Sequence record: PZ445437.1
Length of the DNA stretch: 64,000 nt
DNA from: a phage
Strand: one strand, 5' to 3'
The position numbers were made by a program, and so were the translations under genes. The notes below the pieces were generated by a model, which did no database searches, was not told the DNA's origin, and saw only the letters and a program-made list of their open reading frames with translations. Shown one piece after another: positions 11,245-16,507 of the stretch. The stretch's first letter is position 1. The number at the start of each line of letters is the position of its first letter.

Positions 11245-13509
11245 TCATAATTTACAGGATGAACAATCTTCAGCTTTTGGAGTTTCTATTTCATAATCAT
11301 CAGTACCAGAACCATCACGGGTATTATGATAATAGAAATTTTTTCCGCCAAAATACCAAAAATACAAAAGGTCATCAATCATTATTGACATTGGAACCTT
11401 TCCTTTTGGAAAAATCTGTGGGTCATAATATGTATTCGCTGAAGCTGATTGACATACCCATTTCAGCATAATAGCTACCTGCGTAAGATAAGGTTTATTA
11501 CCTTTCTTAGCTAATTTCCATGTATAATCATAGAGGTCTATGTTATGCTCAATATTGGGCACGACTTGATTAAAGGAGCCCTCTTTTGATTCTTTAACAG
11601 AGACTGGTCCACGTGGAGGCTCGATACCGTTTGTACTGTTAGAAACTTGGGAAGATGACTCACATGGCATAAGTGCTGATAATGTGCTATTACGGATGCC
11701 AAAGAGCTTAAGGTCTTCCCGCAGCGACGACCAGTCACAAACGTATTTTGGAGCTGCGATTTGGTCAATCTTTTTATTGTACCAGTCGATAGGTAATTCG
11801 CCTCGAGACCAACGAGTGTCTGAATAATATTCGCAAGGTCCTTTTTCTTTGGCGAGCTTAATGGATGCTTTAATGAGTCCATACTGTAATCTCTCAAATA
11901 GTTCATGTGTTAAATCGTTAGCATCTTCATAAGAAGCAAAGTTACTTGCCAGCCAAGCTGCATAGTTAGTAACACCTACACCAAGGTTTCGACGCTTTTT
12001 AGCTTTTTCTGCTTCAGGAACTGGATATCCTTGGTAATCCAAAAGATTATCAAGAGCACGAACTTGAACTTCTGCTAATTCATTAATTTTATCTTGGTCT
12101 TGCCAATCGAAGTTATCCAGCACAAATGCAGAGAGAGTGCACAATCCAATTTCAGCATCAGGGCTATTCACATCATTTGTTGGAATAGCAATTTCACAGC
12201 ACAAGTTACTCTGACGAATAGGTGCCTTTTCACGAATAAACGGAGTATAGTTATTCGTATTATCAATGAACTGCACATAAATCCTTGCTGTTCCTGAGCG
12301 TTCAGTCATGAGCAATTCAAATAGTTCACGGGCTTTAATGCGCTTTTTACGAATATTAGGGTCTTTTTCTGCTGCTTCGTATAATTCACGGAAACGGTCT
12401 TGGTCTTTAAAATAAGAATAATAAAGCTCGCCACCCATTTCATGCGGACTGAACAAAGTAATGTAATCGTTCTTTCCGAATCGTTCCATCATCAAATCAT
12501 TCAGCTGAACACCATAATCCATATGACGAATGCGGTTTTCTTCTACGCCTTTGTTATTTTTCAAAACGAGAAGATTTTCAACTTCCAAATGCCAAATAGG
12601 ATAATAAGCAGTAGCAGCGCCGCCACGAATTCCACCCTGTGAGCATGATTTAACTGCAGTCTGAAAATGTTTCCAAAAAGGAATAACACCAGTATGACGT
12701 ACTTCACCCATGCCAATCTTAGAACCTTCGGCACGAATCATACCAACATTAATACCAATTCCAGCGCGTTTAGAGATATATTCAACAATTGAAGCGGAAG
12801 CCTTATTGATAGACTTCAATGAATCACCTGCCTCAATAACAACGCATGAACTAAACTGTCGAGTCGGAGTACGACAACCAGCCATAATAGGAGTTGGCAA
12901 TGAAATCTGTCGAGTAGATACTGCTTCATAAAAACGAATAACGTGTTTTAATCTATCAACAGGTTCATCTTGATGCAAGGCCATTCCAATAGTCATAAAT
13001 GCAAACTGTGGAGTTTCATAAATTTGACCAGTGGTTTTATCTTTAACTAGATATTTTTCTTTTAATTGCATCGCCCCGGAATAAGTAAATTCCATATCAC
13101 GCTCGTGCTTAATTTTTGATTCTAAAAATGTAATTTCTTCTGCTGAATATTTTGACAATAATTCAGGGTCATATTTACCTGCATTTACACAATAAGAAAT
13201 ATGGTCAATAAATGAACGCGGTTCATACTGCCCATAAACATGCTTACGAAGAGCAAACATTAAACAACGTGCAGCTACATATTGGTAATCAGGCTCTTCA
13301 ACCGAAATAGAATTCGCAGCGGCCTTAATGACAATAGTCTGAATATCATCAGTTGTCATTCCATCACGGAGATAAGATTTAATATTTTCATATAATTCAT
13401 AAGGATCTACTGATGTTCCTTCAGCTGCCCAAGATAAAACTTTAATAATTTTTTGTGGGTCAAAGCTCTGAGAAACACCACTACTTTTGATAACATTAAT
13501 TAATTGCAT
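11245..13509 (-). CDS. nrdA: ribonucleotide reductase large subunit (754 aa)
   Basis: Class I RNR alpha: ATP-cone N-terminus, NLCCEI active-site cysteine region; length equals T4 NrdA. Confidence 0.95.
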   Translation of the reverse strand: MQLINVIKSSGVSQSFDPQKIIKVLSWAAEGTSVDPYELYENIKSYLRDGMTTDDIQTIVIKAAANSISVEEPDYQYVAARCLMFALRKHVYGQYEPRSFIDHISYCVNAGKYDPELLSKYSAEEITFLESKIKHERDMEFTYSGAMQLKEKYLVKDKTTGQIYETPQFAFMTIGMALHQDEPVDRLKHVIRFYEAVSTRQISLPTPIMAGCRTPTRQFSSCVVIEAGDSLKSINKASASIVEYISKRAGIGINVGMIRAEGSKIGMGEVRHTGVIPFWKHFQTAVKSCSQGGIRGGAATAYYPIWHLEVENLLVLKNNKGVEENRIRHMDYGVQLNDLMMERFGKNDYITLFSPHEMGGELYYSYFKDQDRFRELYEAAEKDPNIRKKRIKARELFELLMTERSGTARIYVQFIDNTNNYTPFIREKAPIRQSNLCCEIAIPTNDVNSPDAEIGLCTLSAFVLDNFDWQDQDKINELAEVQVRALDNLLDYQGYPVPEAEKAKKRRNLGVGVTNYAAWLASNFASYEDANDLTHELFERLQYGLIKASIKLAKEKGPCEYYSDTRWSRGELPIDWYNKKIDQIAAPKYVCDWSSLREDLKLFGIRNSTLSALMPCESSSQVSNSTNGIEPPRGPVSVKESKEGSFNQVVPNIEHNIDLYDYTWKLAKKGNKPYLTQVAIMLKWVCQSASANTYYDPQIFPKGKVPMSIMIDDLLYFWYFGGKNFYYHNTRDGSGTDDYEIETPKAEDCSSCKL

Positions 13510-14063: not shown

Positions 14064-14924
14064 TTACACCGCCATTTTTCCTTTAATTGGCAGATGAGAT
14101 ACATAGTTGTTAAGAACAAAATTATGAGGCTTTGCAAATTGACTCAACCAAAATACCTGCGATTCTGTGTCCCATTCATCAAATTCATCTGGAAATTTTA
14201 ATTGTAATTCGCATAAATCCATAGGTTCACGACGTAAAATTTCTTTACATTGTTCTACGTGATTCATATAGATATGAGTATTACCACCAGAAAATATCAA
14301 ATCTCCAGGAATAAGATTACACATTTTAGCTACAATATGAACTAACGTAGCATATGATGCAATATTAAATGGAAGACCGAGGAAAACATCTACCGAACGT
14401 TGATACCACTGCAAATCTAAATAGCCATTACGCACATTAAACTGATAGAACATATGACAAGGCGGTAATGCCATATATTTAAGTTCAGCTGGATTCCACG
14501 CAGAAACAATTTGACGCCTATCATTTGGCAGTTTTTTAATACGATCAACAACTTCTATAATTTGGTCTACACCGCCAAAATCACGCCACTGTTTTCCATA
14601 AATTGGACCAAGTTCACCACTATGGTATCCTAAATCTTTTGCCTGATTTTCGTAATTTTCATCCCAAACTGTTTTGCCTTGGATTAACGAATCGTGTTGA
14701 ATTAATCGTAAATCATTGACATTTGTGCTTCCCGATAAAAACCATATTAGCTCAGCAATGCATGCATTCCAGGCGAGCTTCTTAGTTGTTACTGCAGGAA
14801 AACCTTTGGTTAAATCCCATCGTAATTTAGTACCGAACAAAGCAATTGTTCCTGTGCCCGTTCGGTCATCGGTTTCATAGCCATTTTCAAAAATGTCTTT
14901 AATTAAATCTTGGTATTGTTTCAT
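14064..14924 (-). CDS. td: thymidylate synthase, uninterrupted (286 aa)
   Basis: Continuous ORF with ThyA motifs (active-site PPCH, DLGPIYG); no intron. Confidence 0.92.
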
Positions 14925-14969
14925 TTAGTACCTTATATAAATTATAATACATTTTATGAAGCTAAATAA

Positions 14970-15317
14970 TCAATACGATTTAGCATCAAATTTTCTCTCA
15001 ATTTCAGGCGTGAAATATAATTCTTTACCGCGTTTGGAAAAGCGACCAATAATATGATAATTATTCTCATCAAACGTGATATTACCAATATCCATAGCTT
15101 TCAACCAAATATCGATATTTCTATCCAGCTTTATATCAAAATTCCAATACGGAGAACTATTACCGAAAATAATGCAAGCGGATTCAGTGAAACAACTGCT
15201 ATAAATCTTGTCTTTAGGAACTACTAATTGATAGACACCTTTAATAAACTGAGGACCCTGCCACTTTGGCTGTTTCTCGTCTTTTTCTAACAGAATAGGG
15301 TAATAATTAAAATTCAT
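14970..15317 (-). CDS. hypothetical protein (115 aa) between td and frd
   Basis: ORF track. Confidence 0.55.
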   Translation of the reverse strand: MNFNYYPILLEKDEKQPKWQGPQFIKGVYQLVVPKDKIYSSCFTESACIIFGNSSPYWNFDIKLDRNIDIWLKAMDIGNITFDENNYHIIGRFSKRGKELYFTPEIERKFDAKSY

Positions 15318-15336
15318 ATTTCCGCCACGCGTTATT

Positions 15337-16163
<827 letters not shown>

Positions 16164-16174
16164 ATCATCTCCAA

Positions 16175-16507
16175 TTAAAAAGGATCAGGAACGTATCCGC
16201 TAGCTTTAATCATTTTAATTAACGTTAACATTCCTTTGTTAACTGCTCGTGAGATTTCATCAAAAGCTTCAGGATTAAAAAGTTCTAACACGCCCTTCTG
16301 AACTTTTAATTTACAGCCAACAATTTCTTCATCGCCTATAGTAAATTCATTACCACCAATTCCTCCGAAAAACTTAATTACACCAGTTAACTGTCTTCCA
16401 CGAGAATATGGGTCGTGTGATAAATTAATATGAGTCACCCCGGGTACAGTTTTAAATTGGCAGCGAATGTTTACTTGGGAAATTCCAGTTACATGAATAT
16501 CAGACAT
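16175..16507 (-). CDS. hypothetical protein (110 aa)
   Basis: ORF track. Confidence 0.55.
   Translation of the reverse strand: MSDIHVTGISQVNIRCQFKTVPGVTHINLSHDPYSRGRQLTGVIKFFGGIGGNEFTIGDEEIVGCKLKVQKGVLELFNPEAFDEISRAVNKGMLTLIKMIKASGYVPDPF

Follow-up and report, generated by a model that had tools for sequence, protein, structure and literature searches.

The frd-td region of this phage very probably represents the standard nucleotide-metabolism module of the Tevenvirinae, in which dihydrofolate reductase (frd) is followed by a small conserved ORF and an intron-less thymidylate synthase gene (td); T4 would be the derived form, having gained an intron and lost 416 bp, and the I-TevI target in the td described here would be an ordinary one. 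The sequence analysed, which we call the window, is a 64,000-nucleotide stretch of phage DNA (PZ445437.1). It comes from a Tequatrovirus (T4-like) phage, and the region is 96-98% identical to that of many Escherichia and Shigella T-even phages. The frd-ORF115-td arrangement, where ORF115 denotes the 115-aa ORF, is already known, being annotated in hundreds of T-even genomes.

The genes of this locus lie on the minus strand and, by increasing coordinate, are nrdA (11245-13509), nrdA.1, nrdA.2, td, ORF115, frd, further small ORFs, and gene 32. The 193-aa frd (15337-15918, minus) was identified by PF00186 (E 3.6e-19) and phrog_316 (E 3.4e-56). ORF115, predicted from the letters alone to sit between td and frd, is indeed found there (14970-15317, minus); the ORF list and a profile match assign it to the RB32ORF229c/phrog_1928 family of small, beta-rich proteins. 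The original statement that frd and td are directly adjacent in T4 was likewise accurate, as the two genes overlap (ATGA) in NC_000866 with nothing between them. Upstream of frd are two ORFs that T4 does not have, an 81-aa ORF resembling RB32ORF231c (15918-16163, minus) and a 110-aa ORF matching Pfam DUF7247 with an E of 1.5e-42 (16175-16507, minus). T6 has both of these, T2 has just the 81-aa ORF, and at T4 frd, frd.1 comes after 71 bp.

A 45-bp spacer (14925-14969, minus) separates ORF115 from td, and it is conserved in T6 and missing from T4. On inspection it contains a Shine-Dalgarno-like AAGG, and TTAGCTTCA followed by the promoter-like TATTATAAT, an arrangement similar to a MotA-box middle promoter or to the -10 element of a sigma-70 promoter; a sigma-70-like match, TTGATT-18-TATTAT, spans 14973-14944. 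Because a promoter scan of the region found promoter-like sites to be no commoner than in shuffled sequence, we take the resemblance upstream of td as a lead and nothing further.

The td gene (14064-14924, minus) is a single continuous ORF of 286 aa, as originally predicted, and the coordinates and segment sequence given with that prediction are exact. The ORF list and PF00303 identify it as thymidylate synthase, the profile matching residues 2-286 over positions 1-266 (E 1.2e-92, 310.3 bits against a cutoff of 24.3). In an alignment of ten phage thymidylate synthases including that of the window, C156 (in the PPCH motif), H157, R176, and R21 are invariant. T4 td is split, as originally stated, by a group I intron carrying I-TevI, which measures 1017 bp in NC_000866. 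The T4 and T6 td exons align without a gap across nt 549 of the window td, and apart from one cassette they are 96% identical to it in nucleotide sequence. A scan of the whole 64-kb window against Rfam returned no family at gathering threshold, be it tRNA, group I intron, or any other, and we conclude that the window is without a group I intron.

Intron-less td is the majority state among td-bearing records. At least 80% of the T4 td intron is present in 197 records, with shorter intron remnants in some others. Of the 529 records with td, up to 345 have the gene in one contiguous place, a figure that slightly overestimates the intron-less state because short introns without an endonuclease merge into one place. 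Published surveys give a similar picture of T4, which has been called "an oddity" with its 15 homing endonucleases (PMC2988022), and list intron-encoded endonucleases among the sequenced T-even-type phages in T4, T6, RB3, and LZ2 only (PMC2993671, Table 5). T6 carries both the td intron and ORF115, indicating that intron state and the presence of ORF115 are independent of one another.

The one cassette in which td departs from T4 was delimited by alignment to T4 and lies at 14122-14221 (minus), corresponding to residues of about 235-268 of thymidylate synthase. Over these 100 nt the identity to T4 is 34%, whereas the flanks are more than 92% identical. The window shares its cassette (type 1) with T6 and RB32, and a second type (VISGLPYKFRYLSTKEQLKYVLKLRPKD) is found in T4, T2, and fFiEco06. 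Both types recur in other genera, type 1 being like the thymidylate synthases of Jiaodavirus and S16 and type 2 like that of Moonvirus. This pattern in the sequences suggests either an old polymorphism or exchange between genera, in what would be a surface segment of an essential enzyme.

ORF115 is a real gene. A profile search places it in the phrog_1928/RB32ORF229c family, with a match over residues 4-111 (E 3.2e-36) and the same genomic slot, and the exact protein is already deposited as QXV84805.1 from Escherichia phage TadeuszReichstein. Its pN/pS is 0-0.22 in five Tequatrovirus copies, and 11 residues (D13, Q16, W19, G27, L31, G91, R92, K95, G97, F102, and P104) are invariant among homologues of about 30% identity, values that indicate purifying selection. 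One could suppose that ORF115 is instead a chance or decaying reading frame without a protein product, as it matches no known domain (Pfam, NCBIfam, and PADLOC gave zero matches to ORF115 and 12 homologues) and is dispensable, T4 being without it. This supposition can be given next to no probability and is refuted by the conservation data: the selection and the invariant columns just described are joined by a reading frame kept in hundreds of genomes and a confident AF2 model (pLDDT 82.6). An exhaustive profile search among 1.84 billion proteins yielded 40 cluster representatives of the family, 38 of which are stand-alone proteins of about 95-140 aa. Within the window, the family HMM run against all six-frame ORFs finds ORF115 alone and no paralogue.

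The same slot is occupied widely. The 412-bp segment carrying ORF115 is present in 362 phage records with an identity of at least 88%, which in 348 of them is 90% or higher, and T2, T6, RB14, RB27, RB32, and RB33 are among the 362. At the protein level, tblastn found 590 records, 228 of them distant (less than 60% identity); the distant copies listed are 31-47% identical and come from phages of Klebsiella, Enterobacter, Salmonella, Citrobacter, and other hosts. In each of the five genomes from other genera that were inspected (Kanagawavirus IME523, Jiaodavirus M12a, Gelderlandvirus S16, Marfavirus P545, and Moonvirus Moon), a homologue of ORF115 lies directly after frd and upstream of td, its start usually overlapping the frd stop codon, and two metagenomic contigs have the same gene order. 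Identity to the window in these genera is 31-44% for ORF115, 45-49% for Frd, and 68-75% for thymidylate synthase, so the divergence of ORF115 scales with that of its neighbors as expected for vertical descent of the block. A sporadic distribution among close relatives, as of a mobile gene, was not what we found.

The description of ORF115 as an "extra" gene, then, does not hold. It is the common occupant of the frd-td slot and apparently the ancestral one, and it is the T4-type junction that is narrowly distributed. With a 39-nt probe that can match the direct frd/td junction only, we found this junction in 32 records, all of them T4 isolates or close relatives, among them RB55, RB59, vB_EcoM_112, HY03, and SG1.

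The slot holds other small genes as well. In several genera a second ORF of 115-119 aa lies between the ORF115 homologue and td (in coordinates of the retrieved loci, L006 2309-2659, L004 2317-2676, L008 2287-2634, and, for Marfavirus P545, L007 2290-2643). The second ORF of S16 (gp154) is a paralogue of ORF115, with an hhalign probability of 96%, an E of 2e-9, and a common GRFxKxG motif, which indicates that the family has been tandemly duplicated in several genera; most Tequatrovirus phages have one member of it, and T4 has none. In some intron-bearing Tequatrovirus phages, represented by fFiEco06, an unrelated ORF of 68 aa (L009 2558-2764) takes the place of ORF115 in the slot. A relationship of this ORF to ORF115 was considered and rejected, as BLASTP shows no similarity. 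It is 79% identical to an ORF of Marfavirus P545 located just upstream of td (L007 2648-2854), a pattern that, read from sequence, suggests that cassettes were exchanged, or differentially lost, at the slot. Of the three small genes, lineages thus retain different combinations, and none is left in T4.

How T4 came to have an empty slot can be approached through a 9-bp direct repeat, TAAATGAAA. Copy 1 (15335-15343, minus) covers the frd stop and copy 2 (14919-14927, minus) covers the td start; the remark "flanked by 9 bp repeat" already stands in the RB32 GenBank record. T4 carries TAAATGAAA once, at its frd/td overlap, exactly as a 416-bp deletion between copies 1 and 2 would leave it. By themselves the repeats do not tell which way the change went, because an insertion with target-site duplication leaves the same repeat, and copy 1 contains ATGAAA, resembling a vestigial td start (Met-Lys), which counts against a deletion. 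Gene order in the outgroups and the restriction of the empty site to so few records, however, favor a deletion in the T4 lineage, and this is the direction that we infer.

The opposite direction would make ORF115 mobile: a degenerate free-standing homing endonuclease, or a cassette of the moron type, would have inserted into a T4-like frd/td junction and duplicated 9 bp of target, with T4 as the ancestral empty site. The perfect repeat flanking the segment, on which the RB32 annotators had remarked, is compatible with such an insertion, as is the variability of the slot, with its 68-aa ORF in fFiEco06. In T-even phages, genes for free-standing endonucleases do occur in between conserved ones (PMC2988022), and records from the BASEL collection label ORF115 a "putative homing endonuclease." We nevertheless consider a mobile origin very unlikely. 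The slot holds homologues in five further genera and in metagenomic contigs, with divergence that tracks the flanking genes, and the empty site is restricted to 32 records of the T4 clade. The protein, moreover, shows neither a nuclease domain, whether GIY-YIG, HNH, LAGLIDADG, His-Cys, or another, nor a nuclease fold, is at 115 aa about half the length of the 211-246-aa homing endonucleases annotated in the T4 region (SegG and I-TevI), and is under purifying selection. We also considered and rejected the idea that the T4-type junction was, as a rule, co-converted with the intron: T6, RB3, and RB9 have the intron together with ORF115, and FL12 has the T4-type junction together with a contiguous homing site.

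Searches for a nuclease fold in ORF115 found none, and a profile search of the PDB returned nothing below an E of 0.08. The endonuclease label is therefore unfounded. One other record names the protein a "putative glucose-1-phosphate adenylyltransferase" (the records behind the two labels are MZ501052, MZ501067, MZ501089, and MZ501113), and the domain and fold searches gave no support to either name. A literature search found no paper naming RB32ORF229c. The AlphaFold model of ORF115 has weak matches only, all of them OB-fold-like, to nucleic-acid-binding domains of the kind found in RPA, S1, HIN, and telomere-end-binding proteins. This possible OB-like fold suggests that ORF115 binds nucleic acid or a partner protein, and the conserved aromatic and basic residues fit such binding without proving it. 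Our best guess, held with low confidence, is that ORF115 is an OB-like binding protein that the phage can dispense with, as T4 does. A more specific reading, which is doubtful, is that ORF115 and its tandem paralogue form a family of small OB-like proteins, kept between frd and td throughout the T4-like phages, that may serve the folate and thymidylate enzymes, perhaps by acting as an adaptor within the dNTP-synthesizing complex or by regulating td translation through RNA binding. Were this so, T4, the model in which the dNTP-synthesizing complex was defined, would have lost this component. A conserved family under selection between two enzymes of thymidylate synthesis is, in any case, a reasonable and low-cost target for functional work in T2 or T6.

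Alignment to the spliced td of T4, T6, fFiEco06, T2, and RB32 locates the equivalent of the I-TevI homing site as a 53-mer at 14350-14402 (minus), with the T4 intron position between 14376 and 14375, after td nt 549. The several synonymous differences from T4 that had been noticed are seven when the quoted segment is aligned to the T4 exon junction (-22, -19, -6, -4, +3, +6, and +18 relative to the intron insertion site), and all seven are synonymous. I-TevI recognizes about 38 bp; it binds a 20-bp region that has the insertion site at its center, and its cut, at CAACG, lies 23/25 nt upstream (PMC2988022, PMC5009752). In its CNNNG motif C1 and G5 are critical (PMC5009752), and the enzyme otherwise tolerates substitutions (PMC2988022, PMC5009752). 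The window has CAACG at -27 to -23 (14398-14402, minus), at the native distance and with no indel relative to T4. The 15-bp spacer differs from T4 at positions 1 and 4 only (C-22T and A-19G), and the sensitive positions in a scan of single substitutions were 2, 6, and 8 (PMC4065259). By sequence comparison, the 20-bp primary binding region is identical to T4 at 16 of 20 positions, the changes being those at -6, -4, +3, and +6; the I-TevI operator, identical at 15 of 20, is bound with an affinity equal to that of the homing site (PMC2988022).

The original prediction had raised the possibility that these differences reduce cleavage by I-TevI from a co-infecting T4. With the cleavage motif intact, the sensitive spacer positions unchanged, and the identical 53-mer present in 93 phage records, reduced cleavage is unsupported, and the window site most likely remains cleavable, judging from its sequence. 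A stronger version, that the synonymous changes are adaptations that lower cleavage and shield td from intron invasion, would draw on the density of silent change (seven differences in 53 nt) and on the stretch between -7 and -4, where none of the intron-less alleles examined matches any of the intron-bearing ones, with -6 and -4 inside the primary binding region. It would also draw on RB32: on the cleavage site and spacer of its td, the nuclease and linker of I-TevI were less active (PMC4065259), and resistance-like alleles may therefore exist. We regard this as unlikely for the window. C1 and G5 are unchanged and no indel shifts the motif, the spacer changes avoid positions 2, 6, and 8, an operator matching at 15 of 20 positions is bound as well as the homing site by an enzyme that accepts many substitutions, and a td divergence from T4 of about 4-5% outside the cassette suffices for seven silent changes. 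Nor does the window site (CAACGTTCGGTAGATGTTTT) resemble that of RB32 (CAAAGAAGTGTTGACGTGTT), which is heavily recoded, with 8 of 20 nt differing in the cleavage site and spacer, including codon-family switches for Arg and Ser. RB32 is the sole natural phage td site with reported reduced activity (PMC4065259), so that of the two sites RB32's is the stronger candidate for a resistant allele.

The contrast between intron-bearing and intron-less alleles, moreover, is what co-conversion alone predicts. All intron-bearing alleles examined are identical from -21 to -1, and the +3 and +6 variants of the window, along with variation at -22, also occur in intron-bearing exons (T6 and fFiEco06). Repair from a break at -23/-25 must yield a uniform -21 to -1 tract, so the differences seen in intron-less alleles need no selective explanation. 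This account draws on the known mechanism of homing, in which the donor would be copied from the break through the intron, leaving intron-bearing alleles with a shared, T4-like tract.

Taken as a whole, we propose that two events would separate T4 from the standard module. In one, the td group I intron with I-TevI would have been gained by homing. In the other, 416 bp comprising the small ORF and its spacer would have been lost by recombination or slippage between the TAAATGAAA repeats, so that the stop of frd became fused with the start of td. The silent changes in the I-TevI target of the window would then be ordinary drift in an allele without an intron, and in a mixed infection the window phage would be expected to act as an intron recipient and not as a resistant partner.

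Comparison with named phages bears on each part of this proposal. RB32ORF229c/phrog_1928, found in T2, T6, RB14, RB32, and most Tequatrovirus phages, is the same gene as ORF115 in the same position, with 95-99% protein identity and, according to the RB32 record, the same flanking 9-bp repeats; the T2/T6 copy differs from that of the window at three amino acids, with nothing material among them. T4 shares with the window orthologous frd and td of about 96% nucleotide identity, the downstream nrdA.2, nrdA.1, and nrdA, and an intact CAACG, but the window has neither intron nor I-TevI, has 416 bp more between frd and td, and has a different cassette for thymidylate synthase residues 235-268. In intron-homing crosses between T4 and T2, the classical recipient is T2. 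Its architecture is identical to that of the window, with an intron-less td and ORF115, although its thymidylate synthase cassette is of the T4 type and it uses a different Leu codon at -6/-4. Within -27 to +13 the T2 homing site has six differences from T4, at four positions shared with the window, whose seventh difference (+18) falls outside the range of this comparison. As a reference for the family to which it belongs, T4 is atypical, and differing from it at this locus is normal rather than novel.
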